56,561 bases of DNA. It comes from Candidatus Eiseniibacteriota bacterium (GTDB lineage Bacteria > Desulfobacterota > Binatia > UBA9968). Each line of letters starts with the position of its first letter. The first letter of the stretch is position 1. Shown here in pieces: positions 730-17,399 of the stretch. Made by a program: the position numbers and the translations under genes. The notes under the pieces are model-generated. The model was not told the origin of the DNA. It saw only the letters and a list, made by a program, of their open reading frames with translations, and made no database searches. The DNA lies in NCBI GenBank assembly GCA_035559295.1, contig DATMBL010000158.1, positions 1-56,561 on the forward strand, read 5' to 3'.

Positions 730-2514
730 CTATGCGTTTTCGCCGCGGCGCCAGACGACGGTATCGACAAGCGCTGGTTTGCCCGCCTCAACCTGCGCGA
801 TCGCGCGGCGGAGCGCCGGCCCGACCTCGGCCGGGTCTTCGATCGGGCCCTCCGCATACCAGCCGAAGCCCTTGGCGATGTGCGCGAAATCGGGCGGAGG
901 GGCTTCGAGGTCCATGCCGATGTACGCCCGCGCGGGGTCGGTGCCGCGCTGGTGCGCCATGTGGATTTGATGAGCCCAGTCGTTGTAGTAGGCGCGGTTG
1001 TTGTACATGATGACAAGCATCGGGATCTCGTACTTGACCGGCATCCACAGAGCGCCGAGATCGAACATCAGGTCGCCATCGGGTTGGAAATCGACCACGA
1101 GCTTCCCCGAACCCTTGTAAGCAAGCGCGACGCCGATCGAGAGGCCGATCTGTGTCCCGGTGCCGAGCTCCCTGCCGACGTGGCGGTAGGGGCGGTCGAA
1201 ATTCCACACCTTGTGCACCCATTCCTTCAGGGTGTTGGCGGTGAGCACCCAGTCGTGCTCCTGAATCACCTGCCAGGTCTCGTGGGCGAGCCGCGCTTCG
1301 GTCATCGGCCGCTCCTGCCATTGATCTCGGACCTGCTCTTGCCACTTGGCCCACTGGCGCGCGTGTCTCTCCGCGATCGCCTGCTTGCGGCTCTCGATCC
1401 GTGCGCCGAGTCCCTTGTTGCCCTCGATGCGCTTACGGCAGGCGCCGGTCAGGGCCGGAATGGCAAGCGCGCTGTCGCCGAGCACGCGCAGGTCCCAATT
1501 GTGATGCTTGTTGTAGTCGGTCGCCCACTTGCTGATCTCCAGGTCGGCAAAACCGACATCGATCCATCGGCAGTCCGGATCGGTCACGACCGTAATCTCG
1601 CGCGTTTGCGTGTTGAGCTTGTGTGACCCGCGCGTCCAATCGACAACATCGAGGGCGACCACGAGGTCGACGCCTTTGAACGCGTCGGGATGAAAGCTCA
1701 CGCTCAGCGGATGCCGGTTCGGAAAGCCGAGCCGCTTGTTGACGTCAAAGACGGACGCGCCGATCGTCTCGGCCAGCGCGACCGTCGAATCGAATCCGAT
1801 CGGCATACGCGCGGCATATTCGGTGAGCAACAGCGGGCTTTCGGCTGCAAGGATCATGTCCGCCGCCGCTTCGATCGCATCAGCCTCGGGCGCGATCCGC
1901 GAGGGGACCCTGACGGCGTATTTCGGAAGCATGACTTCCTCTTTTAATGGGCTTTCCTGGAGCGCCGAGTCGTAGCAGAGGTAGACCGGCCCCTGCGGTT
2001 CGCTCATCATGATCGAGTAAGCGCGGGCGAACGAATCCGGGACCCCGTGGATCGAACCGGGTTGGTAGTCCCACTTGACGAAATTGCGTATCGGATCGGC
2101 TTGAGCAAAGGCGGTATGGATCCAGTCGATAAACGGCCGCCGCAGCTTTTCGTCCATCGGCCCGGTTGCGCCGACGATAAACACCGGACACCGGTCGATG
2201 TAGGCGTAGTAAATGCCCATGGGCGCGTGGAGCAGCCCGACCACATCGTGCACGATCGCCATCATCGGCTTTCCCGTGGCTTTGGCGTAGCCGTGCGCGA
2301 TTTGCACGGCGATTTTTTCGTGGTTGCAGAGCAGCATCGGGGGTTGGTTCTCACCGTAGTTGACGAGCGAGTCATGAAGCCCCCGAAAGCTCGCGCCGGG
2401 ATTCAAGGCGATATAAGGGAACTCGTACTGTTTGATCAAATCGACGATGATATCCGATTGCCAGCGCTGGCTCGACTTCTTGATGCTCGATTTGCTGCTC
2501 GATGGCTCGCTCAT
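730..2514 (-). CDS. Thiamine-diphosphate-dependent enzyme (acetolactate synthase / benzoylformate decarboxylase superfamily), substrate unknown
   Basis: 594-aa ORF. The N-terminal TPP-enzyme pyrimidine-binding pattern is present (ALNPGASFRGLHDSL...HEKIAVQIAHGYAKATGKP...GATGP). The C-terminal PP-binding region is also present (GTGTQIGLSIG...DGDLMF...NNRAYYN). Confidence 0.85.
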   Translation of the reverse strand: MSEPSSSKSSIKKSSQRWQSDIIVDLIKQYEFPYIALNPGASFRGLHDSLVNYGENQPPMLLCNHEKIAVQIAHGYAKATGKPMMAIVHDVVGLLHAPMGIYYAYIDRCPVFIVGATGPMDEKLRRPFIDWIHTAFAQADPIRNFVKWDYQPGSIHGVPDSFARAYSIMMSEPQGPVYLCYDSALQESPLKEEVMLPKYAVRVPSRIAPEADAIEAAADMILAAESPLLLTEYAARMPIGFDSTVALAETIGASVFDVNKRLGFPNRHPLSVSFHPDAFKGVDLVVALDVVDWTRGSHKLNTQTREITVVTDPDCRWIDVGFADLEISKWATDYNKHHNWDLRVLGDSALAIPALTGACRKRIEGNKGLGARIESRKQAIAERHARQWAKWQEQVRDQWQERPMTEARLAHETWQVIQEHDWVLTANTLKEWVHKVWNFDRPYRHVGRELGTGTQIGLSIGVALAYKGSGKLVVDFQPDGDLMFDLGALWMPVKYEIPMLVIMYNNRAYYNDWAHQIHMAHQRGTDPARAYIGMDLEAPPPDFAHIAKGFGWYAEGPIEDPAEVGPALRRAIAQVEAGKPALVDTVVWRRGENA

Positions 2515-2626
2515 TCAGATCGTCTCCTCGGGAAAGTAGCGATGTTGCCGCCAGGCGCGGCCTGGTGTCGCAGGTTTAGTTATCCGGAAAGCGGACGGCC
2601 CGTCAAGGGCGCGTTTCGCTGGTTTC

Positions 2627-2884
2627 CTATGAGGCGGCGGATCGCGAACGGTCGATGCTCTTTTGAATTGTCGGTAGAGCCTCGGGATAATGGAGGGCGG
2701 CGATGCACAGGAGAGCCTCGATCTCCTTTTCGTCGCAGGAGACTACCATCAGAACGGGTTTCTGGTTTTCGTCAAGGATGAATCCGACTTCTCGCCAAAC
2801 CGAAACGAGAATCGCTTGCTTATGCAAATGATCGCCCAGCATCTTGAAAGCTTCCGGGGTAAGCTCGACCGTGAACTGTTTCAT
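2627..2884 (-). CDS. Hypothetical small protein (85 aa from MKQFTVEL...)
   Basis: Open frame with an internal ATG at 2884. I recognise no motif. The codon usage looks coding, but support is weak. Confidence 0.3.
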   Translation of the reverse strand: MKQFTVELTPEAFKMLGDHLHKQAILVSVWREVGFILDENQKPVLMVVSCDEKEIEALLCIAALHYPEALPTIQKSIDRSRSAAS

Positions 2885-3063
2885 GACGAGGGGACAGCCA
2901 TAGCGCAGGGTTGTAGCAAAGCGCAAGCGGATTTCCGACCGGTTGACGCATCCCTAAAAAAGGGCGGAAAGTGCCAGGGTCGCGGAGCGAAAGTAGAAAC
3001 GGCGAAAAGGAACCGAGCGGAGCTCGTCGAAACGATTGCCGCACCCTTTCTCGGGCGGAACAA

Positions 3064-3138
3064 TGGTGGTCCCAACGGGATTCGAACCCGTGTTACCGAC
3101 GTGAGAGGCCGGTGTCCTAGCCGCTAGACGATGGGACC
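3064..3138 (-). tRNA. tRNA-Glu (anticodon CUC), CCA encoded
   Basis: The reverse complement is GGTCCCATCGTCTAGCGGCTAGGACACCGGCCTCTCACGTCGGTAACACGGGTTCGAATCCCGTTGGGACCACCA. It folds as a cloverleaf with acceptor GGTCCCA/TGGGACC, anticodon loop CTCTCAC and T-loop GGTTCGAATCC. It is colinear with the canonical bacterial tRNA-Glu. Confidence 0.92.
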
Positions 3139-3140
3139 GT

Positions 3141-3216
3141 TGGCTGAGGAGGTAGGACTCGAACCTACAATCGCCTGATCCAGAGTCAGGTGGCTTACCA
3201 GTTAGCCGACTCCTCA
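3141..3216 (-). tRNA. tRNA-Gln (anticodon CUG), CCA encoded
   Basis: The reverse complement is TGAGGAGTCGGCTAACTGGTAAGCCACCTGACTCTGGATCAGGCGATTGTAGGTTCGAGTCCTACCTCCTCAGCCA. The acceptor is TGAGGAG/CTCCTCA (U1-A72), the anticodon stem is CCTGA/TCAGG with loop CTCTGGA, and the T-arm is GTAGG/CCTAC. Confidence 0.92.
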
Positions 3217-3283
3217 ATCGGCGGGCGCAATCAAACTAGAAGAATTGCGCCGCCGAGTCAAGGCAAACGGGCCCGGGGGCGGG

Positions 3284-4708
3284 TTACGATACAGCCGGCG
3301 CGATCCCTCCGGCCGCGCGCCGCAAGCGCATCAACGTGCGCTCTTTTCCCAGGACCGAGATGACATCGTAAATCCCCGGGCTGACGGTCGTCCCGGTAAG
3401 CGCGACGCGCGCCGCTTGAGCCAGGCTTGCAATCGGCAAGCCGAATGCCTGGAGGACTTCGGCGAAGGCCGACTCGATTGCGGGTGGATCAAAAGCCTCC
3501 AGCCGGGCGAGCTTGTCGATTAGCGCGTGTAGCGCCGGCAGGATTTTTGGGGTGAGAAACTTTTTGGCCGCCTTCGAATCGAGCGTGATCTCGTCGGTGA
3601 GGTAGAAACTCGCGGCATCAACCAGCTCGACGAGGGTTTTACACCTCTCCTGGAGCGTGCCAAGCGCTCGTTCAAGCCACGCCCGATCCCGCGGCACGGG
3701 AAATCCTTTGGACTCGATGAACGGGATAACGTCTTCGGCGAGCTGCGGGAGAGGGCGCGATTTGAGGTAGTGAAAATTAACCCAGAGAAACTTTTCCGGA
3801 TTGAACACGCCGGCGGATTTCCCGACCGATTCGAGAGAAAACTTTTCGATCAGCTCGTCCCGGGAAAAGATCTCCTGATCTCCGTGCGACCAGCCGAGCC
3901 GCACCAGATAATTCAGGACCGCTTCCGGAAAATAACCCATGTCGCGATAGGCCAGGACCGATGTCGCTCCATGGCGTTTGCTGAGCCGGGCCTTGTCGAT
4001 GCCCAGGATCAGCGGAACGTGCGCAAACTCGGGCGGCGTGCTCTCGAGAGCGTGATAGAGTTGGATTTGCCGCGGCGTGTTCGCCAGGTGATCATCGCCG
4101 CGGATAATGTGGCTCACGCGCATGTCGATGTCATCGACGACGACGCAGAAATTGTACGTAGGCGTGCCGTCGGAGCGCGCGATGATCAGGTCGTCCAGCT
4201 CCCGATTGTCGAAGACGACTTCGCCCTTGACCGCATCATTGACCACCGTCGATCCCTCGCGCGGCGAGCGGAAGCGGATGCTGTAGGGGACTCCGTGGGG
4301 CAACGCCGGAGCCGTCCCCTCCGGCGGCCGGCACGTGCCGTCGTAGATCGGCTTACGCTTTTCCTTCAACGCCGCCTGTCGCTTGGCTTCCAGTTGCTCC
4401 GGCGTGCATACGCATGGATAGGCTTTGCCCCTTCGGAGCAGCCAATCGATCCGCTCCCGATAAAGCGCCAGGCGCGCGGTTTGAAAAAACGGCCCTTCGT
4501 CATAGTCGAGCCGAAGCCAGCGCATCGCTTCGAGGATCGCATGGATCGCTTCAGGGGTGGAGCGCTCCCGATCGGTGTCTTCGATACGCAGGATAAACTG
4601 CCCGCGATGGTGGCGGGCGAAGAGATAGTTGAAAAGCGCCGTGCGGGCGCCGCCGATATGCAGGTAACCCGTGGGGCTCGGCGCGAAGCGCGTGCGGACC
4701 GGCGACAT
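3284..4708 (-). CDS. gltX: Glutamate--tRNA ligase
   Basis: 474 aa. It has the class I HIGH motif (PSPTGYLHIGGARTA), a KMSKS-type motif (RLSKRHG) and IEDTDRERS. Confidence 0.95.
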   Translation of the reverse strand: MSPVRTRFAPSPTGYLHIGGARTALFNYLFARHHRGQFILRIEDTDRERSTPEAIHAILEAMRWLRLDYDEGPFFQTARLALYRERIDWLLRRGKAYPCVCTPEQLEAKRQAALKEKRKPIYDGTCRPPEGTAPALPHGVPYSIRFRSPREGSTVVNDAVKGEVVFDNRELDDLIIARSDGTPTYNFCVVVDDIDMRVSHIIRGDDHLANTPRQIQLYHALESTPPEFAHVPLILGIDKARLSKRHGATSVLAYRDMGYFPEAVLNYLVRLGWSHGDQEIFSRDELIEKFSLESVGKSAGVFNPEKFLWVNFHYLKSRPLPQLAEDVIPFIESKGFPVPRDRAWLERALGTLQERCKTLVELVDAASFYLTDEITLDSKAAKKFLTPKILPALHALIDKLARLEAFDPPAIESAFAEVLQAFGLPIASLAQAARVALTGTTVSPGIYDVISVLGKERTLMRLRRAAGGIAPAVS

Positions 4709-6584: not shown

Positions 6585-7907
6585 TCAAAAAGCGTAGCTC
6601 AAGGAAAGCGCGACAAAATTATTGAAGGTGGTAAATTTGTCGCGTCCCGGAACCCCGAGAAAAGGAATGCCCGTCGCCGGAATCCCTTCGAGCTCGACGT
6701 TTCGCGCGCGCCTGGTCTTATAAAGCGCCGCCATATATCCCACATCGACCGAGATCCTTCCAACGTGATAACCCACGCCCGCGTTCAGGGTGAGAATGTC
6801 GGCGCCGGGGATCGCCGGGTTTAGCCTTCGCTCGGGGATCGGCGTCTCATCCAAAGTAATCCCTGCGCGAATTTCCCACGCGGCGGTGAGCTTGTAGAAT
6901 GCTCCGAGCCGAAAAACGCTCGTGCTCTTCCATTCCTGCGGTAGACTGAAGCCCGCGACCGGCGCACCGAGAAAACGCGGTCTGGGCGAGAACGTCGCGC
7001 CAAAGCGGGCAAACTCCTCCCAGCGGACATGCTCGTAAACAAACTCGGCGCCGAGAAACGGCGTGATTTGCCAGAACACGCCGAGATCGATGACGGGGGG
7101 CAGCGGAAGCGGCCGTACCTCGGCACTCGTAGCGGCGATCGAAAAGGCGCCTTCGAGTTTCACGCGCGCCTCTCTAAATCGTAAATCCGTGCGAGACCGG
7201 TAGCTAAAGCCCAGCTTTATCCGATCCACAGGTTTGAACAGGATACCGAGATTGTACGCGAACGCATGCGTCGTATCGGTAATGCGCATTCGTCCTTCGA
7301 GGCCGATCGGAGCGGTGCATCCCGTGATCGGATCGAAGCACAACGCGCGCGAAAATAACCCTGTGGCATGGACGAAACTCGCGCCGGCGCCGATGGACAG
7401 CTGTTTAAAAGGGCTCCAGGAAAAGGCCGGCGTCACGTAGAGCGTTCTCAGCTCCGTGCGCTGCGCCGCGAAGCGCGCAAAGCCCGCTTCGTACGTTGTC
7501 GCCAACCCAAATGGCGTGTATGCGCCGAGGCCGAAAGTGACGTTGCTTCCGGGGAGATGATAATTGACAAACAGCGCCGCGAGAAAGTTGTCGTCGTGGA
7601 GGTTACGGGCCTCGCGCGCTCTATTTTCGACGCTGTTGATGACGTTGATGTAACTTCCGTTGAGCAACAGTACGTTGCCGTCGACCTCGCGCAACGCCGC
7701 CGGGTTGTAATAGACGGCCGACGGGTCGTCTACACCGGCAGTCAAAGCGTTGGCCATACCGAGGCCCTTTGCGGTTTGGTGCGGGATCATAAAGCCGCCG
7801 GCATGACACCGATCATATGCGATGACCGCTCCCAGCAGCACGGCGAGTAGCAATCCGAGCGCAATTTGGCGTCGCGAACGCCAAGGCATGATGTCCAAGT
7901 TGCCCAT
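6585..7907 (-). CDS. Outer-membrane transport protein, OMPP1/FadL/TodX family
   Basis: 440 aa. It has an N-terminal hydrophobic signal region, a YYNPAAL-type motif near the N-terminus, a beta-strand-like alternating pattern and a C-terminal aromatic residue (SLSYAF). Confidence 0.8.
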   Translation of the reverse strand: MGNLDIMPWRSRRQIALGLLLAVLLGAVIAYDRCHAGGFMIPHQTAKGLGMANALTAGVDDPSAVYYNPAALREVDGNVLLLNGSYINVINSVENRAREARNLHDDNFLAALFVNYHLPGSNVTFGLGAYTPFGLATTYEAGFARFAAQRTELRTLYVTPAFSWSPFKQLSIGAGASFVHATGLFSRALCFDPITGCTAPIGLEGRMRITDTTHAFAYNLGILFKPVDRIKLGFSYRSRTDLRFREARVKLEGAFSIAATSAEVRPLPLPPVIDLGVFWQITPFLGAEFVYEHVRWEEFARFGATFSPRPRFLGAPVAGFSLPQEWKSTSVFRLGAFYKLTAAWEIRAGITLDETPIPERRLNPAIPGADILTLNAGVGYHVGRISVDVGYMAALYKTRRARNVELEGIPATGIPFLGVPGRDKFTTFNNFVALSLSYAF

Positions 7908-8066
7908 GTGTTCGGCCCCCGGCGCAAATGTGATTATGAACGCGGGTCTATATCAAAGGATGCAGCCTGTATACAAACGCAGCATTGCCGAGCCCATGGG
8001 GAGCGCACGCCGGATTCCTCACGGGTTATAGATATATATGGATAGAGCCAACAGGTGGAGAGAACC

Positions 8067-8095
8067 TTGACTAACAGTGCCAACTGCTGTATAGG
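8067..8095 (+). promoter_or_regulatory. Sigma70-type promoter candidate (TTGACT-17 nt-TATAGG) upstream of the HTH/VTC/MFS genes
   Basis: The hexamers were read directly from the sequence. The site lies in an AT-rich intergenic region about 40 nt before the ATG at 8137. Confidence 0.35.
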
Positions 8096-8136
8096 AGTGC
8101 GAACTTCTACACAGAATAGCCATATATTGCGTTAAA

Positions 8137-8328
8137 ATGCACGAAACTCTTTTGACCACAGACGAACTCGCCAGCTACTTGAAAGTTGACCGATTTACGA
8201 TATATCGGCTCGTCGCGAGGAAGAAAATTCCAGCCTTCCGCGTCGGCAACCAATGGCGGTTTAAGAAAGCTTTGATCGACGCGTGGCTGCTTGAGAACTC
8301 AACTCTCCGTTCGAAGCGATCGACTTGA
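8137..8328 (+). CDS. Small helix-turn-helix DNA-binding protein (excisionase/MerR-like HTH family)
   Basis: 63 aa. The pattern LLTTDELASYLKVDRFTIYRLVARKKIPAFRVGNQWRFKKALIDAWL is the typical excisionase-family HTH signature. Confidence 0.7.
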   Translation: MHETLLTTDELASYLKVDRFTIYRLVARKKIPAFRVGNQWRFKKALIDAWLLENSTLRSKRST

Positions 8329-8352
8329 GGCGAGGCTTAGGAGTACGGGAAC

Positions 8353-9252
8353 ATGGCCAGTCAATTCAAGACGCCGAACGATATGAGCATTCAATGCCCT
8401 GGATCCGACACATCGGTCTCCGAACCGAATTTCCAGGATCGGATCGAGCGTAATTACTTGATCGGCCTCGTTGAGAGCAGCACGGGTATGCTATGGCGGC
8501 AACTGGGTGAATACCTCACCGGGTATGGGTTTCATCCGATCTACAACATCACATGTGTCGGTAGCGTTTATTTTGATAACCGTGACTTTGATCTAACGCG
8601 TTTCACCATTCTGAATGGCGGTCGTCACATTCTTGTTCGGCTTCGGGCGTATGAGAGCTATGGCGAAGCACCGAAGCCTATATTGCATTATTGGGTTGAA
8701 GTAAAAATCAGAGAAAAAGAACGATGGAGGAAAAAGAGATTTAGACTGGATCGGCGGGATCTTGCTGGTTTATTAACGGGCGGGGATCCTGGTCGAAGCC
8801 TCTTTGAATCGAATGCGGTTTCCTCGGTCGCGGTGAGACAACTGTATCGTGAAACACAGGAGACCATCTTAACGAACGGCCTCAGGCCGATACTTTTACT
8901 AACGTATCGGAGGCTAGCTTTTCAAAACGACACAGAACGAGTTTGTCTCGATTCCGACATAAGATATTACCACGTTGACGAAGACGTCTACACTTACGAT
9001 TCGTGGAAGTATCCTATCCAAGAACCAGCCGGGAAATCACGAAAGGTAATTTTAGAACTTAAGTATCCCGATGGCGCGCTTCCGGTCTGGTTAGAGAGTC
9101 TCGAACAGCGGTACCCAATCACGTTGACGAATTTCTCCAAATACGTGGAGGGAATGGGCGTTTTGTTTCAGGGGCCGCTTAGAAGCCATAGAGAAGCGAC
9201 CTACTTTCTGCCGCGGATCGAGACTTACATGCTCAATTCTGAACGACTCTAG
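8353..9252 (+). CDS. VTC-domain (CYTH-like triphosphate-tunnel / polyphosphate-polymerase-like) protein
   Basis: 299 aa. The hallmarks of bacterial VTC-domain proteins appear in order: E-x-N/K-Y-L, SVYFDNRDFDL, VRLRAY, WVEVKIREK..KKRFRL, LTYRRLAF, VILELKY and the C-terminal FSKYVEGM. Confidence 0.65.
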   Translation: MASQFKTPNDMSIQCPGSDTSVSEPNFQDRIERNYLIGLVESSTGMLWRQLGEYLTGYGFHPIYNITCVGSVYFDNRDFDLTRFTILNGGRHILVRLRAYESYGEAPKPILHYWVEVKIREKERWRKKRFRLDRRDLAGLLTGGDPGRSLFESNAVSSVAVRQLYRETQETILTNGLRPILLLTYRRLAFQNDTERVCLDSDIRYYHVDEDVYTYDSWKYPIQEPAGKSRKVILELKYPDGALPVWLESLEQRYPITLTNFSKYVEGMGVLFQGPLRSHREATYFLPRIETYMLNSERL

Positions 9253-9274
9253 CCGAGCCTCCGAAAAAAACTCC

Positions 9275-10462
9275 GTGAAGACGTATAAACAGACGATGGG
9301 TGTTCTTGCCATCGGATATTGGAGCCAAGCTCTAACCAACGGAGCTCTGAGAGTTGTGGTACCTATTTACTTCGCTGCGACCGGAGTGCCCCTTTCTAAA
9401 ATCGCATTTCTATTCTTTCTGTTTAAATTTGCTGAGATCTTTGCCCCTGCGGGTATAGGTCTGATGCTTAACCGCGTAGGATATAAAGTAACTTTTGTAA
9501 CCGCTTTGGCACTCCACAGTGTAATTTCATTGTTTTATTCGGCTCCCGGGTTTGCACTGGTTTATGTCGAACGGTTTACGCGTGGACTGCTTTACATGGC
9601 GGATATCACGGCAGTCTACGTAAAGCATTTTTCTCCCAAGCATAAACAACGGTTTCTCATTAATGCCATTCTCGGACTAAAGGAGGCGAGCAAAGGAATT
9701 GGAATGATCGCAGGCGGGCTGCTGATTGTCTATCTCACGATCGAGAATACGCTCGCAATCTTTGCGCTCTGTACGGGTTTATCGGCGCTTTTTGCAGCGT
9801 GGTTTCTGCCTGACCTTAAAGAAGAAGCCAGGCTGCCGGTACTGAGAATCTGGGGTGCGGTCGATACGAGGGTAAAAACGCTCGGGTTAGGATTTGGATT
9901 GCTGAACGGTGCTCTCGATGCCTGGGGCGTCGTCGTGCTGCCAATTTACATGACAACGGTGCTCGGAATGACCCCGGGGTTTGTGGGTACAGTCATGATG
10001 GGGGAGTATATTTTCCAGGGGCTCATCGTTGCATGCTTCGCAAGGTGGGTTAATCTATCCTGGGCGCCTAGAAAGTTATTGATCTTAGGAGCCTTTTTGT
10101 TGATTCCGGTCACAATTGCCCTGTCTTTTGCGACCGCTCTTTACCCTTTGCTGCTGGGAATATTCATTTATATGTTTCTCTTCAGCGCGTCAATGGTTTA
10201 CTATAATCATCTTATGCTGGACTTCGCCAGTGAGGAGAAAACATCTCTCGACCTGGCTACGTACACAACCTTGACCAATATATTTAAGCCAATTGGGGTC
10301 TTTATTTCAGGGTTCCTCGCTGAATCGATGGGATACAGTTGGGCTTACTACTTTGCTGCTATAATGACCCTTGCTTCCGCCTTGACATGCATCGCTCTTC
10401 CAAAGTCGGGTCCTCAGGTAGCTGATGCTGGCGCTTCGAAAGTAAACGTTCAAGTGGCTTAG
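9275..10462 (+). CDS. MFS-type transporter
   Basis: 395 aa with about 12 hydrophobic segments throughout. It has a GTG start and lies 22 nt after the VTC gene. Confidence 0.75.
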   Translation: MKTYKQTMGVLAIGYWSQALTNGALRVVVPIYFAATGVPLSKIAFLFFLFKFAEIFAPAGIGLMLNRVGYKVTFVTALALHSVISLFYSAPGFALVYVERFTRGLLYMADITAVYVKHFSPKHKQRFLINAILGLKEASKGIGMIAGGLLIVYLTIENTLAIFALCTGLSALFAAWFLPDLKEEARLPVLRIWGAVDTRVKTLGLGFGLLNGALDAWGVVVLPIYMTTVLGMTPGFVGTVMMGEYIFQGLIVACFARWVNLSWAPRKLLILGAFLLIPVTIALSFATALYPLLLGIFIYMFLFSASMVYYNHLMLDFASEEKTSLDLATYTTLTNIFKPIGVFISGFLAESMGYSWAYYFAAIMTLASALTCIALPKSGPQVADAGASKVNVQVA

Positions 10463-10471
10463 GGAGGGTTT

Positions 10472-11380
10472 ATGGCTCGCGCTGGGGCTTGTTGGCTTGC
10501 GGCTTTGCTTATTGTTGTGCAACTCGATGTGGTCTTTGCGAACGATAAGAAGGTCCTTGTTTTCGGCCGAGTATTCGACGATCCCGTTAGAGCTATACGG
10601 GATCGTCAGGAGTTCGTGGACTATCTGGCAAGACAGCTGGCGCCCTACGGCATCTCGAGCGGGAAGATACTCGTCGTCGAAAAAATACACATGTTGGCCC
10701 AAGCGCTTCGAGAGGGCAAGGTGGACCTCTTTCATGACAGCGTAGTGCCGACATTGGTGCTCTCGAGACGTGCAGGGGCAATTCCGCTTCTAAGGCAATG
10801 GAAATTTGGCACGCCCGATTACCAGGGGCTTATCGTAGTGAGGAAGCACAGTGGTATCAATTCTCTTGCTGATCTAAAAGGCAAAGTAATTGCTTTCGAA
10901 GAAGCGCATTCCACTTCCGCCACCGTGCTTCCGCGGATGCTTCTAGAGCAGCACGGGTTGGATTTGATGGAAATCAAAACCCCCGGCTCGCCTAACCCAA
11001 ACGCAGTCGGTTATTTTTACGGCAGCGACGGCAATTCAATTAATGTTTTGATCACCGGCCGCGCGGATGCGGGCACAACCATTCACCGGGAATTCGACCG
11101 GTTGCGACCAGAAATCCGGGACTCGTTGAAACTGCTAGCCGCGACCGAATCCGTTCCAAGAAACATTGTAGCGGTTCGCAAGGATCTCGATCCGCGGCTA
11201 ATCAACGCAATAAAGGAAGTTTTGGTCAATATGGACAAAACACCGGAAGGTAAACGTGTGCTACAAGCGACACAGAATACAACTAAATTTGATCCTATCC
11301 CTCCAGAATCAGTCGCACAGTTGAATCGAATTGAAAAGTACGTTTTTTCATCGCTGGGTAAAGAGGTAGATTCGTGGTAG
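10472..11380 (+). CDS. Periplasmic substrate-binding protein, PhnD-like (phosphate/phosphite/phosphonate SBP fold)
   Basis: 302 aa with a signal-like N-terminus. It shows the PhnD-type pattern (VLVFGRV...FVDYLARQL...GKVDL...YQGLIVVRKHSGINSLADLKGKVIAFEE..STSATVLP). No ABC permease or ATPase is adjacent, and it sits directly upstream of a sensor kinase. Confidence 0.7.
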   Translation: MARAGACWLAALLIVVQLDVVFANDKKVLVFGRVFDDPVRAIRDRQEFVDYLARQLAPYGISSGKILVVEKIHMLAQALREGKVDLFHDSVVPTLVLSRRAGAIPLLRQWKFGTPDYQGLIVVRKHSGINSLADLKGKVIAFEEAHSTSATVLPRMLLEQHGLDLMEIKTPGSPNPNAVGYFYGSDGNSINVLITGRADAGTTIHREFDRLRPEIRDSLKLLAATESVPRNIVAVRKDLDPRLINAIKEVLVNMDKTPEGKRVLQATQNTTKFDPIPPESVAQLNRIEKYVFSSLGKEVDSW

Positions 11381-11389
11381 CATCGGCGC

Positions 11390-12898
11390 ATGAATCTCCG
11401 GGGACGGTTTAGCCTCAAGTTAAAGATTTTTGTTTTTGCTGGGCTTTTCTTTCTCGCCGCAATCGGCACCCTCACTTTTTTCACCATTCGTTTCCAACGA
11501 GAGCTGCTGTTAAGACAAATGGGCGAACGGGCCAAGGCGGGAATCAGCCTGATGGAGCTGAGCGTCACCGGGGCTCTTTACAGGCTCGATACGTATCGAT
11601 TGGAAACTATTGCTCGGGAGGCCAAAGCTCTACCTAACGTGGATTATGCCTACATTTTTGATGAGAAAGGAAGAATCGTCGGGGACTTTCACGAAAATCA
11701 GAGTCACCTTTTTACGACATTCACTGATGCCCTTGGTAAGCGAATTTTGAATTCCGACAAAATCCTGGTGCAGATCGATCATGAAAAGGAGATCCTGGAT
11801 ATTTCGAAGCCCGTATGGTTGGGCAATCAGAAACTGGGAGGCATTCGTCTAGGCTTCGATTTGAAGCCGATACTTGAGGAAATCAAAAGAGCTTCGCTGA
11901 GGGCATTGGCGATTTCAGCCGCTATTTTGATAAGCGGCTTAATTGTTATCTTCGTCGTCACCACGCGACTGACCAAGCCGATCGAAAGGCTTACTGTGGC
12001 CGCTAAGCGGATCGAAAGCGGCGATCTTCAGTATCGCGTTGGGATCCAAAGAGACGACGAAATCGGTACGCTGGCCGTGGCCTTTGATCAGATGGCCGAG
12101 CGCTTGATGCAGCGGGAGAGAGAGCTCAAGGAATCGCAGGATATCCTGCGACGCGCCGACCGGCTCAGTTCGCTCGGCTTGCTAACCGCCGGGCTGGCGC
12201 ACGAGATTCGCAATCCGTTGGTTGCCATCCGGACCTTTACCCAATTACTCCCCGAGCGCTACCAAGATGCCGAGTTTCGGGAGGGCTTTCAGGGCCTCGC
12301 GCTCAAGGAAGTGGACCGGATATGCGGGCTGATCAACGATCTGCTGAGCTTCGCGCGGCCATCGCGCCCAAACGTAGCGGAAGAAAACCTCAACGACGTC
12401 GTCGATTCGATCGCCCGAATTCTCGAAACCGAAGCAAAAGAAAAAGGCGTCGAGATCGTTCGCAACTACGCCGCGAATCTGCCCAAAGTTTGGATTGACA
12501 GAGAGCAGATGAAGCAGGTATTTATGAATGTCGTTCTGAATGCCATTCAGGCGATGAAAGAGGGAGGTTCGCTTTTCATATCAACCCGCGTGCTCACGAG
12601 AGAAGAGGCCGGCGATGGCGGCCTGTTTCTCCAGGTGGAGATTCGCGATACCGGCGTCGGCATCCCAGAGGAGAATCTCGAGCATATCTTTGATCCGTTC
12701 TTCACCAGCAAGGATGAGGGAAGCGGGCTCGGCTTGTCGATCTCGCATCAAATCGTTCAGGAGCATGGCGGCTATATTGTGGTTGAAAGCAAGGTCGGCA
12801 AAGGAACGACGTTCTTCATCAACCTGCCGGTCGGAAAACAGATTCGCCCTTCAAGCAACGGTCGAGCGATAAATGAAGCGAATCTTAATCATCGATGA
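11390..12898 (+). CDS. Sensor histidine kinase (2 TM + periplasmic domain + HAMP + HisKA + HATPase_c)
   Basis: 502 aa. Motifs seen are the H-box LAHEIRNPL, N-box NVVLNAIQA, G1 DTGVGI, F-box FDPFFT and G2 GSGLGLS. The HAMP-like region is TKPIERLTVAAKRIESGDLQYRV. Confidence 0.9.
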   Translation: MNLRGRFSLKLKIFVFAGLFFLAAIGTLTFFTIRFQRELLLRQMGERAKAGISLMELSVTGALYRLDTYRLETIAREAKALPNVDYAYIFDEKGRIVGDFHENQSHLFTTFTDALGKRILNSDKILVQIDHEKEILDISKPVWLGNQKLGGIRLGFDLKPILEEIKRASLRALAISAAILISGLIVIFVVTTRLTKPIERLTVAAKRIESGDLQYRVGIQRDDEIGTLAVAFDQMAERLMQRERELKESQDILRRADRLSSLGLLTAGLAHEIRNPLVAIRTFTQLLPERYQDAEFREGFQGLALKEVDRICGLINDLLSFARPSRPNVAEENLNDVVDSIARILETEAKEKGVEIVRNYAANLPKVWIDREQMKQVFMNVVLNAIQAMKEGGSLFISTRVLTREEAGDGGLFLQVEIRDTGVGIPEENLEHIFDPFFTSKDEGSGLGLSISHQIVQEHGGYIVVESKVGKGTTFFINLPVGKQIRPSSNGRAINEANLNHR

Positions 12899-14720
12899 GT
12901 CGCCTGCCGTTCGCGAAACCATTGCCCTGATTTTGGGCCGAGAATTCACCGTCATCCAACGATCTCCAGAAAAAGGAGTGGAATTCAGCGACAACGCCGA
13001 AGAAGCGGAATTGATGATCATCGGCGTTGCCCCGGTCATGGGCGGCGTATCGTCCCACTTGGCTCATCTGGCGGCGCGCGCGCCCGTTGCGATTTTGTTC
13101 CTGGTCGATTCCAAAGCCGCCCTGCGTCAGTTTCAACCCGCGGGCAACATCGGTTGTCTCGCGAAGCCGTTCAATCCCTACGAACTGCGCGAAAAGGTCG
13201 GCGAGCTTCTCGCCCGCCGGTCGATCCGGCCGCCGGCGCGCCGGAGCCAGGCCGAAAAACCCAACCCGGATCTAACCCGCTTCATCGAGTATCCCTTTGT
13301 CACCCGAGCGAGTGCGTCTTTGGTTCGAAGGTTCGCGGCAACGCGGCTCCCGCTGCTGATCATGGGCGAAGTCGGCTCCGGTCAGGACCGCGTGGCGCGC
13401 GCGGTGTTCAGCCTCGACCCCCGCGGCGGTACCTGGGTATCGATCAGCGGCGCTGAAGTGACCGCCGCCTCACTTTCCGACCTGAGTCGCGAAATGGCGT
13501 CCTTACCCCTCGATCTGGCCGTGACGATCGCCGTGGAGAGTCTCGACAGCGTGCCGGCGCCGGCCTTTTCACCCCTTGCGAACTTTATCGAGCAGGAACA
13601 AAATAGGCGGGTTTATTGCCGGCTGCTCGCAACCTCCAGGGGCGACCTGTTGGAGCGCGTGTATCGCGGCGAGTTTCCGGATTTCCTTTACTACAGGTTT
13701 GCGACGCTGAAGATCGCATTGGCGCCGCTTCGTGAACGGCAGGACGACCTCGCCGACCTTGCCGCCTGGTTTGCGCGACTGTATGCCGAGCGCCTGGGGT
13801 TGGGTGAGGTCGTATTGTTGCCCGCGGCGGTGGCGCGATTACGCAATTACCTGTGGTTCGGCAACGCGGCTGAAATGGAAACGGTGATTGCGCGAACCCT
13901 GGCAGCGCGACGAAAGCGTGAAATCGACGAAGGCGATCTGATCTTCGACTTTTCCGAAGAGCCGCTCGTCTCGGAACCGGCGGATACTCTCGGCCGCCAG
14001 ATTGCGCCCGAAGGCAACGAGGCGATCCGGACGGTTTCGAGCGCCCCTGCCGCTAGCGGGCTGCGCAACGGCAGATCCGTGGAGTTGCGGGTTTTGATCC
14101 ACGAACTGGCGCACGAGCTTAAAAATCCCATGGTGACGATAAAGACGTTTGCGCAGCTTTTGGGGGAGCGTTACCAGGACGAGACCTTTCGCGCGCGCTT
14201 CCAGGACGTCGTCGACGGCGACATCGAACGCATGGACGATCTCCTCGAGGTCATGATCGAGTTCGCGGATTTCTCCCCTCCGCGTCTCGGACGGCTGCTG
14301 CTCGAAGATCGGCTGCGCTCGACCGTCGAGGAGCTCGGGCAAGAGTTTTCGCGCAAGCAGGTGACGGTCCGCTGGAGCGGCAACGGCAACAAGCGAGAGA
14401 TCCTCGCCGACGCGGCGCATTTAAAATACATTTTCAAAAACGCCCTGTTGGCGATGCTCGCTCAGGCGAAGGCGGGAAGCGATTTCGATATTAGACTCGA
14501 GCGACCCGGCAGCGCTGAGATCGCATACGTGCGCGAAGGCGCGCGTATCATGCCGATCACGCACTATCTCGCCGCCGCGCCCGGAGAAGCCCCCCTCGAG
14601 GTTCTGCCGCTCCGTTTGCTCCTCGCCAAGCAGTTGTTGGAGAGAAACGGCGCGCGAATGACCACCGAGCATTTAGGCGACGAACGCGATCTCATCAAGA
14701 TGGAGTTTACACTTGCTTAG
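12873..14720 (+). CDS. Degenerate chimera: pseudo-receiver + inactive sigma54-type AAA+ domain + HisKA-like DHp + degenerate HATPase-like domain
   Basis: 615 aa, overlapping the kinase gene by 26 nt. The REC-like N-terminus (ILIIDES...KPF) has Gly where the phospho-Asp is expected (LMIIGVAP). The AAA+ core has Walker A GEVGSGQD instead of GESGTGKE, lacks an LDE Walker B (IAVESLD) and has no GAFTGA loop, yet it keeps YYRF..L.PLRERQDD and WFGN..E. The C-terminus has LAHELKNPMVTIKTFAQLLGERYQD, but the G1/G2 ATP-lid motifs are absent. Confidence 0.8.
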   Translation: MKRILIIDESPAVRETIALILGREFTVIQRSPEKGVEFSDNAEEAELMIIGVAPVMGGVSSHLAHLAARAPVAILFLVDSKAALRQFQPAGNIGCLAKPFNPYELREKVGELLARRSIRPPARRSQAEKPNPDLTRFIEYPFVTRASASLVRRFAATRLPLLIMGEVGSGQDRVARAVFSLDPRGGTWVSISGAEVTAASLSDLSREMASLPLDLAVTIAVESLDSVPAPAFSPLANFIEQEQNRRVYCRLLATSRGDLLERVYRGEFPDFLYYRFATLKIALAPLRERQDDLADLAAWFARLYAERLGLGEVVLLPAAVARLRNYLWFGNAAEMETVIARTLAARRKREIDEGDLIFDFSEEPLVSEPADTLGRQIAPEGNEAIRTVSSAPAASGLRNGRSVELRVLIHELAHELKNPMVTIKTFAQLLGERYQDETFRARFQDVVDGDIERMDDLLEVMIEFADFSPPRLGRLLLEDRLRSTVEELGQEFSRKQVTVRWSGNGNKREILADAAHLKYIFKNALLAMLAQAKAGSDFDIRLERPGSAEIAYVREGARIMPITHYLAAAPGEAPLEVLPLRLLLAKQLLERNGARMTTEHLGDERDLIKMEFTLA

Positions 14721-14757: not shown

Positions 14758-16152
14758 ATGAGCCAGCCGCTGTTGCTGGTCGTCGATGACGAACTCGGAG
14801 TGCGACAGTCCCTCCAGATGATCTTCAGCAAGTCGTTTCGCGTCGTCGAAGCGAGTTCGGCCGAGGAAGCGCTCCAGAGAGCCAGCGAAGACAGGCCCGA
14901 TATCGTGCTGCTCGACATCGTCATGCCGGGGACGGACGGGCTCGCCGTTCTCAAGCAGCTGAAATCGATGCATCCGGATTGTCAGGTGATCATGTTGACC
15001 GCGCTGAACACAGCGCGTACGGGTTTCACGGCGAAGAGCACAGGAGCGTTCGACTACGTGACCAAGCCTTTCGATGTCGACGAGCTGCGCCTGCGCGTGG
15101 AGCGCGCGATGGAAAAGATTCAACTCTCCAGGGAACTCGAGCGGCTGAAGGAAGAAGTCGGGCGCAAATACGGCGTTGACAACGTTATCGGCAAGTCGAA
15201 GCAGATCGTCGACGTCTTCAAAGCCGTCAGTATGGTGGCCGCCAAAAAGAGCACGGTTTTGATCCACGGCGAGAGCGGCACGGGAAAAGAACTGATCGCG
15301 CGCGCGATTCACTATAACAGCGATCGTCGGGCGAAGCCGTTTGTGGTCGTCAATTGCGCCGCGCTACCCGATACACTCATCGAAAGCGAGCTTTTCGGCT
15401 ACGAAAAGGGCGCGTTTACCAACGCGTCGCAGAAGAAAGTGGGCCGGTTCGAGCTGGCGCACGGCGGCACGTTGTTTCTCGATGAAATCGGCGAATTGAA
15501 TCTGGGAACGCAGGCGAAGTTCCTGAGAGCCGTCGAGCAGGAAACCTTTACCCGTTTGGGCGGCACCGATGAAATCAAGGTGGATGTCCGCGTCATTGCG
15601 GCGAGCAACCGGGATCTGGAGGTCATGGCGAAAGCCGGCGATTTTCGGCCGGACCTCTTTTACCGCCTCAATGTCGTCTCGCTTTATCTGCCGCCGCTCA
15701 GGGAGCGGCGCGACGATATCCCGCTGCTTTTGGATCATTTCCTGCGCCTGAAAGCCAAAGAGCACTCGGTTCCGCCGAAGTCGCTTTCGCCCGAGGTGGT
15801 CGATTTTTTTACCGCGTACTATTGGCCCGGCAACATCCGCGAGCTCGAGAATCTGATCGAGCGGCTGACGATTTTAACGCCTCATGACACGATCATGCTG
15901 CGCGACCTTCCCGAGAGCATGCGCGCGACGGATCAAACCGCGACACTCAAAGAAGACGTTCTGAGCGGCGCCCGGCCATTGAGCGATGCGGTCGATGAGT
16001 TCGAGCGTGAGCTGATCGTCAAAGCCCTGCAGAGGACCGGGTTTAACCAAACCAAAGCGGCTTCATTGCTTGGCACGAGCCGCCGCATCTTGAAGTACCG
16101 GATCGAGAAGCTGAAAATCCACGAGTCCAGCGTCGACGAGGCGAAGTTGTAG
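14758..16152 (+). CDS. Sigma54-dependent response regulator (NtrC family: REC + AAA+ + Fis-type HTH)
   Basis: Motifs seen are LLVVDDE, IVLLDIVMPG and KPF in the receiver. The AAA+ domain has GESGTGKE, GAFTNA (a GAFTGA variant), LFLDEIGEL, FRPDLFYRLNV..LPPLRERRDDI and WPGNIRELEN. The C-terminus has QTKAASLLGTSRRILKYRI. The track ORF begins at a TTG at 14713. I prefer the ATG at 14758, which lies downstream of the preceding stop at 14720. Confidence 0.92.
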   Translation: MSQPLLLVVDDELGVRQSLQMIFSKSFRVVEASSAEEALQRASEDRPDIVLLDIVMPGTDGLAVLKQLKSMHPDCQVIMLTALNTARTGFTAKSTGAFDYVTKPFDVDELRLRVERAMEKIQLSRELERLKEEVGRKYGVDNVIGKSKQIVDVFKAVSMVAAKKSTVLIHGESGTGKELIARAIHYNSDRRAKPFVVVNCAALPDTLIESELFGYEKGAFTNASQKKVGRFELAHGGTLFLDEIGELNLGTQAKFLRAVEQETFTRLGGTDEIKVDVRVIAASNRDLEVMAKAGDFRPDLFYRLNVVSLYLPPLRERRDDIPLLLDHFLRLKAKEHSVPPKSLSPEVVDFFTAYYWPGNIRELENLIERLTILTPHDTIMLRDLPESMRATDQTATLKEDVLSGARPLSDAVDEFERELIVKALQRTGFNQTKAASLLGTSRRILKYRIEKLKIHESSVDEAKL

Positions 16153-16160
16153 ACACAGCT

Positions 16161-16174
16161 GGACAAAATTGTCC
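16161..16174. promoter_or_regulatory. Palindrome GGACAA-AA-TTGTCC, candidate enhancer-binding (UAS) site
   Basis: A perfect 6-2-6 inverted repeat, read directly from the sequence. It lies about 75 nt upstream of the sigma54 promoter match, which is the usual distance range for a bEBP UAS. Confidence 0.35.
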
Positions 16175-16247: not shown

Positions 16248-16263
16248 TGGCATGCCGGTTGCT
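16248..16263 (+). promoter_or_regulatory. Sigma54 (-24/-12) promoter candidate TGGCATG-N4-TTGCT
   Basis: The sequence cTGGCATGccggTTGCT matches the consensus YTGGCACG-N4-TTGCW in all invariant positions (GG and GC 10 nt apart). It sits immediately upstream of the ATG at 16278, which has no Shine-Dalgarno sequence. Confidence 0.55.
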
Positions 16264-16277
16264 TCGCTTTCTCCGGC

Positions 16278-17399
16278 ATGGATGCGCATAAGGCCAATAT
16301 CCTGATTGTCGATGACGAAATGGGGCCGCGGGAATCGCTTAAAATGATCCTGCACCCGTATTATAACGTCCACGTAGCCGACCGCGGTGCGCGCGCCTTC
16401 GAGATTCTCAAACAATACCCCATCGATCTCGTCACGTTGGATCTCAAGATGCCCGGCCTGACCGGCATCAATGTGCTCGAGAAGGTGAAGCAGCACGATC
16501 CCGATATCGAGGCGATCATCATCACCGGATACGGCTCCCTCGATACCGCCATTGAAGGGCTCCGGCTCGGCGCGTTCGATTACATCTCCAAGCCTTTCGA
16601 CGTCAATCACGTGCTGGCGCTGGTCCGCCGGGGCTTGGAGCGCCGGCGCGCCAAGGCGCGGTTGCGCGAAGTCAAGGCGGATTTTCTCTCCAACGTCTCG
16701 CACGAGCTCCGCACCCCCCTCAGCGTCGTCGTTGGCTTCGTTTATCTGCTGTTGAACCAGGTGATCGGCAAGCTCACCGACGAGCAGCAGAAGGTGCTCG
16801 AGACGGTTTATCGGAATTCAGAAGAGCTGCTCGAGTTGATCGATAACGTGTTGTGGATGACGTCGCTCAATGCGGGCGATAACGATGCCTTCGTCGCTCC
16901 GTTCGACGTGCGCGATGTGATCGAGCAAACCGCCAAACGCTACGAGCGCATTCTGCGAGAGAAGGGCTTGACCCTCAGCATCGAGGGTTGTTCGTCGGCG
17001 CTGCGCATCGTCAATGACCGGTCGAAAATCGAGCGCATCGTTCAGAACATCTTCAGTAACGCCGTGAAGTTTACCGCGCGCGGCGGCATCCGCGTGATCG
17101 CGCGTCCGAGCGCGGCCGGCGGCGTCGAGCTGGAAATCGGCGATACCGGGATTGGTATCGAGCGGGCCAAGTTGGATTCGATTTTTGAGCCGTTTCACCA
17201 GATCGATAGCTCGATCCACCGATCGTTTTCCGGTCTTGGGCTTGGCCTCACGGTGGCGCGCCGGATGGCGGAGCTGATCGGCGGCAGCATCGAGCTCAGC
17301 AGCGAGCCCGGCGTGGGGACGCGCGTAACGGTTAGAGTTCCCTCCAAAGCCGAAGCCGGCACGGCAGCGCTGGCGATCGAGCAGCGGCGCTACGGCTAA
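16278..17399 (+). CDS. Hybrid response regulator / histidine kinase (REC + HisKA + HATPase_c)
   Basis: 373 aa. Motifs seen are ILIVDDE, LVTLDLKMPG, KPF, the H-box SHELRTPL, N-box NIFSNAVKF, G1 DTGIGI and G2 GLGLGLT. Confidence 0.9.
   Translation: MDAHKANILIVDDEMGPRESLKMILHPYYNVHVADRGARAFEILKQYPIDLVTLDLKMPGLTGINVLEKVKQHDPDIEAIIITGYGSLDTAIEGLRLGAFDYISKPFDVNHVLALVRRGLERRRAKARLREVKADFLSNVSHELRTPLSVVVGFVYLLLNQVIGKLTDEQQKVLETVYRNSEELLELIDNVLWMTSLNAGDNDAFVAPFDVRDVIEQTAKRYERILREKGLTLSIEGCSSALRIVNDRSKIERIVQNIFSNAVKFTARGGIRVIARPSAAGGVELEIGDTGIGIERAKLDSIFEPFHQIDSSIHRSFSGLGLGLTVARRMAELIGGSIELSSEPGVGTRVTVRVPSKAEAGTAALAIEQRRYG

Follow-up and report, generated by a model that had tools for sequence, protein, structure and literature searches.

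Protein X is a 615-amino-acid protein encoded on the forward (+) strand, at positions 12873..14720 (GenBank HWO41541.1), of a 56,561-nucleotide stretch of DNA from a Candidatus Eiseniibacteriota bacterium (GTDB lineage Binatia; contig DATMBL010000158.1). This whole stretch is called the window below. The gene lies between those of an intact sensor kinase and an intact sigma-54 activator of the NtrC type, and its product resembles a chimera of the two, in which a receiver (REC) domain and an AAA+ domain are followed by the core of a histidine kinase. The sites for ATP-dependent chemistry appear to be lost in X, and the dimerization and histidine phosphotransfer (DHp) domain is kept intact almost throughout a family of related proteins. 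The likeliest of the roles considered here, although with somewhat less than an even chance of being right, is that of an ATP-independent, DHp-based phosphatase or histidine-phosphotransfer partner of the adjacent activator.

General features of protein X

The domains of X follow one another in the order pseudo-REC, pseudo-AAA+ with lid, DHp and pseudo-CA (catalytic and ATP-binding domain). The pseudo-receiver comprises residues 1-116 (12873..13220, + strand, as are all features of the window below) and has Gly51 (codon 13023-13025) in the position of the phospho-acceptor Asp. It is joined by linker 1 (residues 117-131; 13221..13265), which is variable and disordered (predicted local distance difference test, pLDDT, <50), to the pseudo-AAA+ core (residues 132-286; 13266..13730; pLDDT ~90), where Gln171 (codon 13383-13385), E222-S223 and a retained R275 are found. 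The AAA+ lid (residues 287-360; 13731..13952) comes next, with the sensor II sequence PLRER (residues 285-289) at its border, and is followed by linker 2 (residues 361-402; 13953..14078), again variable and disordered (pLDDT ~27). The DHp helical hairpin spans residues 403-466 (14079..14270) and carries His414 (codon 14112-14114) and E415-x-x-N418. The remaining residues, 467-615 (14271..14717), make up the Bergerat-like pseudo-CA domain, as defined by alignment with ZraS (9JFJ) and by a model of the C-terminal part. Pfam recognizes Sigma54_activat/Sigma54_activ_2 at residues 148-286 and AAA_lid_14 (40 bits) at 287-364, both above cut-off, as well as HisKA at 408-466 (33.4 bits, cut-off 26.9); the match to Response_reg at 4-109 scores 19.3 bits, below the cut-off of 30.2. 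X has no Pfam match to HATPase_c and none to HTH_8, its C-terminus being HisKA plus a CA-like fold and thus not a Fis-type DNA-binding domain, and no NCBIfam equivalog covers it.

Upstream of X, at 11390..12898, is the gene for the sensor kinase, HK1, an AtoS/NtrB-type protein (sCache-like, HAMP, HisKA and HATPase_c domains; best NCBIfam match AtoS) with intact G1 and G2 boxes in its orthologs. Downstream, at 14758..16152, is the gene for the activator (REC, AAA+ and the helix-turn-helix, HTH, domain HTH_8), whose best matches are AtoC and NtrC. A sequence-only reading of the window had described the open reading frame (ORF) of X, placed between an active kinase and an active activator, as an NtrC-like activator that lacks its DNA-binding domain and is fused to the core of an NtrB-like kinase, the DHp being intact and three catalytic modules disabled. 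The ORF is present as described, overlapping the kinase gene by 26 nt and ending 37 nt before the activator ATG at 14758, and both neighbors are catalytically intact by Pfam and, for the kinase, by its orthologs. The loss of the three catalytic modules is now established from Pfam and from profile alignments to NtrC1 and ZraS, not by eye.

The fusion itself is borne out by the homology of the two halves of X to its neighbors. The only match of the N-terminal 360 residues in the window is to the adjacent activator (26% identity over 374 residues, E 1e-20), and the C-terminal part matches only HK1 (35% over 142 residues, E 1e-19); the DHp of the REC-HK (receiver-histidine kinase) protein encoded further downstream gives no significant match to X in the same comparison. 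These matches, together with likenesses of single helices in distant lineages, indicate that X is a chimera of its own system, a regulator without the HTH joined to a kinase core. Although homologous to all three, X by its motifs is neither a sigma-54 activator nor a response regulator nor a histidine kinase as these are defined.

DHp and pseudo-CA domains

In the AlphaFold model, residues 402-433 and 437-465 of X form the two helices of the DHp hairpin. The H-box reads H414-E-L-K-N418, and H414, E415 and N418 are invariant in the homolog alignments. H-[ED]-x-x-[TN], next to the His, is the HisKA phosphatase motif. In 86 representatives of the family, down to 25% identity, the H-box ELAHE[LIF][KR]NP[ML] is near-universal and the His is missing in 1-2 only. 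The resemblance to the DHp of the upstream kinase, noted before from the sequence, amounts to 45% identity over the DHp (E 1e-16) and is concentrated in helix 1, which is almost identical in X (HELKNPMVTIKTFAQLL) and HK1 (HEIRNPLVAIRTFTQLL); helix 2 of X is far less like that of HK1. Helix 1 of the two proteins is closer still in distant lineages, as illustrated by X of one distant locus (L083), whose LAHEIKNPLVAIKTFTQLLPERF is near-identical to LAHEIRNPLVAIRTFTQLLPERY of the window HK1. The near-identity of DHp helix 1 in X and an NtrB-type kinase implies that both have the same receiver partner.

The motifs of the CA domain were called from a profile of X residues 398-615 aligned end to end with the DHp and CA domains of ZraS (9JFJ, E 1e-14). 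The G1 box, DxGxG, is replaced by R554-E-G-A-R558 and the G2 box, GxGLGL, by V-L-P579-L-R581-L; both boxes are missing in every representative of the family. The first Asn of the N-box is kept (N523), whereas the second, which coordinates Mg, is replaced by Ala527, so that the earlier description of this domain was right about the lost boxes and the first Asn but overlooked the loss of the Mg ligand. The model of the C-terminal part (predicted template modelling score, pTM, 0.73) nevertheless has a normal kinase-core fold, for which Foldseek returned ZraS, CusS, HprS, HK853, DivL and RetS. The ATP lid is of normal length with altered motifs, and loop 557-575 is of low confidence in the model. 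Given this loss of motifs, X is predicted to be incapable of ATP-dependent autophosphorylation.

Family, distribution and selection

X is not the single oddity for which it had been taken. From 5.8 billion clustered proteins, at least 119 more full-length homologs (as 90%-identity clusters) were recovered; they are 48-66% identical to X and have the identical Pfam set. A second, exhaustive search of 1.84 billion representatives clustered at 50% identity yielded 119 proteins at E <= 1e-30, about 85 of them near full length and spanning the whole of X, at identities down to ~25%. The named members all come from metagenome-assembled genomes (MAGs) and belong to Candidatus Binatia, "Deltaproteobacteria", Thermodesulfobacteriota, Syntrophaceae, Schekmanbacteria, Ratteibacteria and unclassified bins. 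They bear automatic names only, such as "sigma 54-interacting transcriptional regulator", "DNA-binding NtrC family response regulator" and "histidine kinase dimerization domain protein". Apparent members in Nitrospinota, Omnitrophota, Planctomycetota, Verrucomicrobiota and others were rejected, as tblastn had stitched a true kinase with intact G1 and G2 boxes to an adjacent NtrC gene. In two loci, L103 (~1956-4345) and L104 (~2217-4606), a frame with an X-like H-box runs for 1015 codons with no upstream stop and may be either a kinase-X fusion or a stop-free stretch. Judged by its motifs, the X of the window is in the most degenerate (Binatia) branch, and what its members have in common across the family is the DHp with its His and E-x-x-N rather than any ATP-dependent activity.

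The ratio of nonsynonymous to synonymous substitution rates (dN/dS) was estimated from 12 locus pairs with dS of 0.15-1.2. The DHp has both the highest mean pairwise identity and the lowest dN/dS in X (0.87 and 0.047, respectively). The other folded domains follow with 0.73 and 0.18 for the pseudo-REC, 0.71 and 0.10 for the lid, 0.66 and 0.14 for the pseudo-CA and 0.60 and 0.16 for the pseudo-AAA+, and the two linkers are far more variable (0.29 and 0.52 for linker 1, 0.30 and 0.39 for linker 2). Low dN/dS in every folded domain means that selection maintains even the "dead" domains of X, and the values of 0.10-0.18 in the pseudo-domains imply that the N-terminal half of the protein has a function.

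Three destroyed catalytic sites and an inconsistent automatic annotation might suggest that X is the relic of a fusion, without function and decaying into a pseudogene. This is hardly credible. Full-length ORFs are found in ~85 clusters at 50% identity and more than 119 at 90% identity, the order of genes and their overlaps are conserved, and the very residues that replace the catalytic ones (G51, Q171, R558 and P579-L-R581) are invariant in more than 100 homologs. With dN/dS of 0.05-0.18 in the folded domains against 0.4-0.5 in the linkers, the analysis of selection effectively refutes decay.

Pseudo-receiver and pseudo-AAA+ domains

In the AlphaFold model, G51 is the last residue of strand beta3 (47-51), the exact position of the phospho-Asp. 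The remainder of the site is kept, with D8-E9, D79-S80 and K98-P99-F100 in the positions of the acidic Mg pocket, the Ser and the Lys. G51 is invariant in one alignment of X homologs (A1) and at least 90% conserved in another (A2); across the wider family the site is mostly Gly, and Asp occurs only in a few distant representatives. Model and alignments thus confirm a receiver that has its acidic pocket and the Lys of KPF with a Gly for the phospho-Asp. Its helix alpha1 is similar to that of the activator receiver, in distant lineages as well.

The AAA+ motifs were called from a family profile aligned over REC, AAA+ and lid to NtrC1 of Aquifex (1NY5/4L4U, E ~1e-34). The Walker A sequence of X is GEVGSGQ, in which Q171 is aligned to the NtrC1 Lys. 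This position is Gln in at least 90% of the Binatia branch, Lys in many distant subfamilies and Arg, His or Gln in others. Walker B reads AVES (E222-S223) in the window and IEN in the family, opposite LDEI of NtrC1, and its second acidic residue, the catalytic Glu, is missing in almost all representatives. The segment of the GAFTGA loop (L1) is 11 residues shorter than in NtrC1 and the pre-sensor-I/L2 hairpin 8 residues shorter; a GAFTGA-like motif was seen in 1 of 284 retrieved proteins, that one being probably a true enhancer-binding protein (EBP). The alignment to NtrC1 therefore agrees with what had been read from the sequence, namely a GEVGSGQD P-loop and the absence of an LDE Walker B and a GAFTGA loop. 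The arginine-finger and sensor region had been read as retained; sensor II (PLRER) is intact, with R287 and R289 invariant in the homolog alignments, and in the finger segment FRxDLxYRL the second Arg is present (R275; K or R in the family) while the first is lost (FPDF). The P-loop glycines (GExGxG) are invariant, and the P-loop of the family is GExGCGQ. These glycines and the sensor II arginines hint at a retained phosphate- or nucleotide-binding pocket. Foldseek matched the N-terminal part of X to NtrC1, NtrC4, NtrX, VpsR, FleQ and LuxO, and gave a probability of 1.00 for NtrC1 and PspF. Binding of cyclic di-GMP by X in the manner of FleQ or VpsR was considered and dropped; the region of the FleQ Arg motif, compared by eye, is without a match.

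Such a well-folded yet inactive ATPase could act on the activator itself. The pseudo-AAA+ and lid of X would then join or cap the ring, or the inactive dimer, of the activator as a subunit that neither hydrolyses ATP nor has a loop to contact sigma-54, and would limit or gate open-complex formation, and the DHp would be mainly a dimerisation handle. The confident model of core and lid and their dN/dS (0.16 and 0.10) fit this picture, as does the selective nature of the losses: the P-loop glycines, sensor II arginines and R275 are kept, and the Walker A Lys, the catalytic Glu, the sigma-54-contact loops and the HTH are gone. Furthermore, the adjacent activator is the closest relative of the N-terminal half of X, and degenerate AAA+ domains with regulatory roles are known among EBPs, including NtrX, VpsR and FleQ from the fold matches. 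We regard this role as quite improbable, however, as it leaves unexplained the most conserved features of X, the His and ExxN of the DHp and its receiver-specificity surface, and as an identity of ~30% to the AAA+ domain of the activator makes the compatibility of their interfaces uncertain.

Genomic context and synteny

The order HK1, X, NtrC-type gene and REC-HK gene is conserved (77 loci in a first genome scan). The partner proteins are 56-88% identical, compared with 42-52% for X. In most of 56 loci the genes of HK1 and X share 23-26 nt (median 23), which supports the earlier proposal that X is expressed together with its neighbors. The NtrC-type gene is directly 3' of X in all 65 loci whose contig is long enough, with a median gap of 17 nt, and in a clade at 30% identity the two genes overlap by 29-32 nt. 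It also directly follows X in the five distant subfamilies sampled, two of which have an overlapping upstream kinase with seven transmembrane helices and a GAF domain (7TM-GAF) and three of which have no adjacent kinase. A second scan gave 33 genuine members, with the regulator downstream in 27 (contig edge in 4, absent in 2) and a kinase upstream in 25 (edge in 2, absent in 6). Loci with X and the NtrC-type gene and no adjacent kinase are L069, L080, L083 and L084. The constancy of the downstream regulator, set against a kinase that is sometimes missing, identifies the regulator as the invariant partner of X. In one further locus, L082, the NtrC-type gene after X is split into a REC-only ORF (6817-7335, 172 aa) and an AAA+-HTH ORF (7402-8235, 277 aa), which could reflect a frameshift, an assembly error or a natural split.

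These observations bear on a further alternative, that X is a pseudokinase directed at the kinase, as RetS and DivL are. X would form a DHp heterodimer with HK1, or place its Asp-less pseudo-receiver as a decoy on the HK1 DHp, and would thereby shift the kinase/phosphatase balance of HK1 or keep the activator from gaining access to it. The gene overlaps suggest co-translation of the two proteins, their DHp helices 1 are near-identical, and an NtrB-type kinase lies upstream in 25 of the 31 assessable distant-branch loci. The pseudo-REC, with its acidic pocket, Ser, Lys and activator-like alpha1, has the properties expected of a decoy receiver, and DivL and RetS, both pseudokinases, are among the fold matches of the C-terminal part. 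On the other hand, X persists before an NtrC-type gene in the four loci that have no adjacent kinase, which weakens the case for a heterodimerising pseudokinase; DHp helix 2, which provides much of the dimer interface, is far less HK1-like, overall DHp identity being 45%; and neither a heterodimer nor a decoy needs an invariant H-box His, Glu and Asn. We consider this alternative unlikely, though less so than the ring-directed role. It, the preferred role of X as a phosphatase or phosphotransfer partner of the activator, and the ring-directed role described above are not mutually exclusive.

Sigma-54 promoter and the fourth gene

The fourth gene of the module, at 16278..17399, encodes a REC-HisKA-HATPase_c protein (Pfam) with the architecture of NmpS and is syntenic in most loci. 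Between the activator and this gene lies a predicted, near-consensus sigma-54 (-24/-12) promoter, TGGCATGCCGGTTGCT, at 16248..16263. A scan of the whole window for the sigma-54 consensus gave 23 matches with 19.4 expected, which is not significant alone, and the promoter at 16248 is credible only because of its position-specific conservation in related loci: in 52 of 63 loci the element precedes the REC-HK start by ~30 nt, and 7 of 8 distant loci have it 5' of the fourth gene, with 0.055 expected from shuffles. About 90 nt 5' of the promoter, at 16161..16174, is a perfect palindrome, GGACAAAATTGTCC, a candidate enhancer (upstream activating sequence, UAS). At this position GGACAA-N2-3-TTGTYC is conserved in the close clade, and no further copies of the palindrome are present in the window, including the region upstream of the operon that leads to HK1. 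Based on the conserved promoter and the plausible enhancer, the fourth gene is most probably under the control of the activator. Its predicted transcription start site is ~4-5 nt before the ATG of the gene in the window and the close clade, making the mRNA nearly leaderless; in more distant loci the promoter is ~50-75 nt before the start.

The receiver of the fourth gene carries in alpha1 the signature DDE.GPRESL, like the activator alpha1, whatever its output domain. In distant loci the gene encodes REC-HisKA-HATPase_c (L080, L083) or REC-HD (L078). The latter (9544-10641; subfamily of P0222, in a 90%-identity cluster that includes a Schekmanbacteria MAG protein) has an HD_5 output domain, the alpha1 sequence DDEIGPRESL and a kept sigma-54 promoter. 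On this comparison the conserved part of the fourth gene is the receiver, not the output. The module thus comprises a true NtrB-type kinase, a protein with only a DHp (X) and a pair of receivers that the same DHp surface might recognize.

Proposed role of protein X

We propose that X acts as a third, stoichiometric partner in a two-component system of the NtrB/NtrC type. With all ATP-dependent chemistry gone, both the AAA+ ATPase and autophosphorylation, what would remain is a homodimeric DHp four-helix bundle that carries the receiver-recognition surface of the cognate kinase. This bundle would dock onto the receiver of the activator, and possibly also onto the REC of the sigma-54-induced fourth gene product. 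X would then either hydrolyse the acyl-phosphate, as a phosphatase, or take the phosphate on His414 and hand it on by reverse phosphotransfer or relay. It would thereby set the level and duration of activator phosphorylation and hence the expression of the sigma-54-dependent REC-HK gene. The pseudo-REC/pseudo-AAA+ half, which mimics the regulator, would serve as a docking or regulatory module for the kinase DHp, for the REC or AAA+ of the activator or for a nucleotide-like ligand.

This role is favored because the H-box is the only intact catalytic-type site of X, is near-universal and lies in the domain with the lowest dN/dS. The intact E-x-x-N speaks for the phosphatase option and the invariant His for phosphotransfer, and a module with two receivers of similar alpha1, those of the activator and the fourth gene, would suit a branched relay or a phosphate sink. 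The CA domain, its fold kept and its Mg-binding Asn, G1 and G2 lost, is in the same state as that of ChpT and RedE, which also argues for the proposed role.

Several points weigh against it. The contact between the X DHp and the activator REC is inferred solely from shared specificity residues and synteny, and DHp helix 1 of X and alpha1 of the activator are too conserved across lineages to give a covariation signal. As HK1 itself has H-E-x-x-N, the need for a separate phosphatase is not obvious. A relay would require a phosphodonor receiver, and the order of transfer is not deducible. The DHp model does not account for the conservation of the whole pseudo-AAA+ and lid, with the invariant GExGxG glycines and sensor II arginines, and the members of the family all come from uncultured organisms. 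As for the N-terminal half, it might sit on the kinase as a decoy receiver, offer the activator a body to dock on, act as an AAA+ subunit that does not hydrolyse ATP, or sense a ligand. A rather unlikely elaboration would unite these functions in a two-component "connector", a covalent double mimic whose Asp-less receiver sits on the phospho-kinase and whose DHp sits on the activator receiver, with the hydrolysis-dead AAA+ inserting into or capping the activator ring. If this were true, phosphoryl flow and AAA+ ring assembly would be coupled in one stoichiometric complex at a sigma-54 promoter, a threshold or timer device. The module is compact, with four genes, one promoter and one candidate enhancer, and its reconstitution should be easy.

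Other features of the module and its surroundings

HK1 is preceded in the window by genes for a VTC-domain protein (8353-9252), a major facilitator superfamily (MFS) transporter (9275-10462) and a PhnD-type periplasmic binding protein (SBP; 10472-11380), all identified by Pfam, which form with it the VTC-MFS-SBP-HK1 operon. VTC, MFS and PhnD-type genes often precede the module, and the order of the window recurs in L003, L009, L018, L027-L029, L047, L049, L057 and L060. Just 5' of the VTC-domain gene is an ORF of 63 aa (8137-8328) with an excisionase/MerR-type HTH_17 domain (63.6 bits). The G+C content is ~0.49 at 8001-12000, a region that spans the HTH_17 ORF, the VTC, MFS and PhnD-type genes and the sensor part of HK1, compared with ~0.60 in the rest of the window. 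Either horizontal acquisition or the base composition typical of membrane-protein genes could account for the difference.

The contact loop of the activator is GAFTNA instead of the canonical GAFTGA. In 78 sequences (the 77 loci plus the window) we counted GAFTNA 59 times, GAFTDA 9, GSFTDA 3, GAFTHA 3 and GAFTGA 2, with no match in 2, and GAFTNA is a lineage-specific variant of the sigma-54 contact loop.

In three distant loci the X/NtrC module is followed by radical-SAM genes (L080 10410-13686, L082 8306-11848 and L069 12442-14488). L080 and L082 also have matches to CofH_C and CofD, to which L082 adds an F420 ligase, and these clusters have the look of F420/FO biosynthesis. Control of cofactor F420 synthesis by the X/NtrC module is a possibility in those lineages; the window has no F420/FO-type genes near the module.

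Comparison with known systems

In line with the sequence-only reading, no described protein with the REC/sigma54-AAA+/HisKA architecture was found in the literature searched, which included few papers from subscription journals. The closest functional parallel to the C-terminal half of X is RedE of the RedCDEF four-component system of Myxococcus xanthus, which cannot autophosphorylate, receives its phosphate from RedD and removes that of RedF~P (PMC2755868). Like X, RedE is a histidine kinase-like protein encoded with a true kinase and response regulators, and its behavior is what we propose for the C-terminal half of X. Unlike X, it has no pseudo-receiver/pseudo-AAA+ half and is not paired with an NtrC-type activator, and the likeness, the kinase fold aside, is one of description.

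ChpT of Caulobacter has a kinase-like fold, does not bind ATP and shuttles phosphate; together with Spo0B of Bacillus it represents the dimeric histidine phosphotransferases, in which a DHp-type four-helix bundle with the phospho-His and a Bergerat-like domain pass phosphate between receivers (PMC3433190). Structurally, X belongs in one class with ChpT, Spo0B and RedE, as it has a DHp-type bundle whose His is conserved and a Bergerat-like domain without ATP motifs. However, the ATP lid of ChpT is replaced by extra helical turns whereas that of X is of normal length, the X DHp is a bona fide HisKA/NtrB-type H-box domain closest to ZraS, and X has an extra regulator-like half of 400 residues that ChpT and Spo0B do not. 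Neither of the two was among the profile matches of X to the Protein Data Bank (PDB) or its top 50 fold matches, so the resemblance is convergent or functional and does not denote family membership.

EBPs of the NtrC1/NtrC4 type are homologous to residues 1-360 of X (REC, AAA+ and lid), and NtrX and VpsR, like X, are without a functional GAFTGA loop. None of NtrC1, NtrC4, NtrX, VpsR and FleQ has the combination seen in X, which lacks the HTH, phospho-Asp, Walker A Lys, catalytic Glu and contact loops and is fused to DHp-CA. DivL and RetS resemble X in having a kinase-core fold that has lost catalytic capacity, and regulate the pathway of a true kinase by protein contact. In DivL the phospho-His is replaced by Tyr, and the main targets of both proteins are partner kinases. 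X differs from them in keeping the His and the phosphatase motif and in having a regulator, not a kinase, as its invariant genomic partner.

A comparable multi-component relay is NmpRSTU of Myxococcus xanthus, in which a sensor kinase acts together with a REC-HisKA-CA protein to feed an NtrC-like regulator, and the components are subject to sigma-54-dependent autoregulation (PMC11841059). The fourth gene of the window has the architecture of NmpS and stands behind a sigma-54 promoter. However, the window has another order of genes, and the Nmp accessory protein, NmpT, consists of two receivers and acts as a phosphate sink, not being a chimera of pseudo-EBP and DHp.

Hundreds of MAG records misannotate the X family as sigma-54/NtrC regulators, so that sigma-54 activators are overcounted in Binatia and Thermodesulfobacteriota. 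Should the DHp act in the way proposed here, a sigma-54 activator would have a dedicated, ATP-independent phosphatase or relay that bears a replica of its own REC-AAA+, a new way of tuning enhancer-dependent transcription. Two-component signalling is commonly depicted as a single step from kinase to regulator. To our knowledge, the extra players of two-component systems described so far (ChpT, Spo0B, RedE, DivL and RetS) each derive from one partner only. X is a third component built from copies of both partners, with the ATP-using sites erased and the folds kept under selection. Among the accessory pseudo-enzymes of two-component systems, what is new in X is this derivation of a chimera from both partners and its strict pairing with NtrC-type activators.

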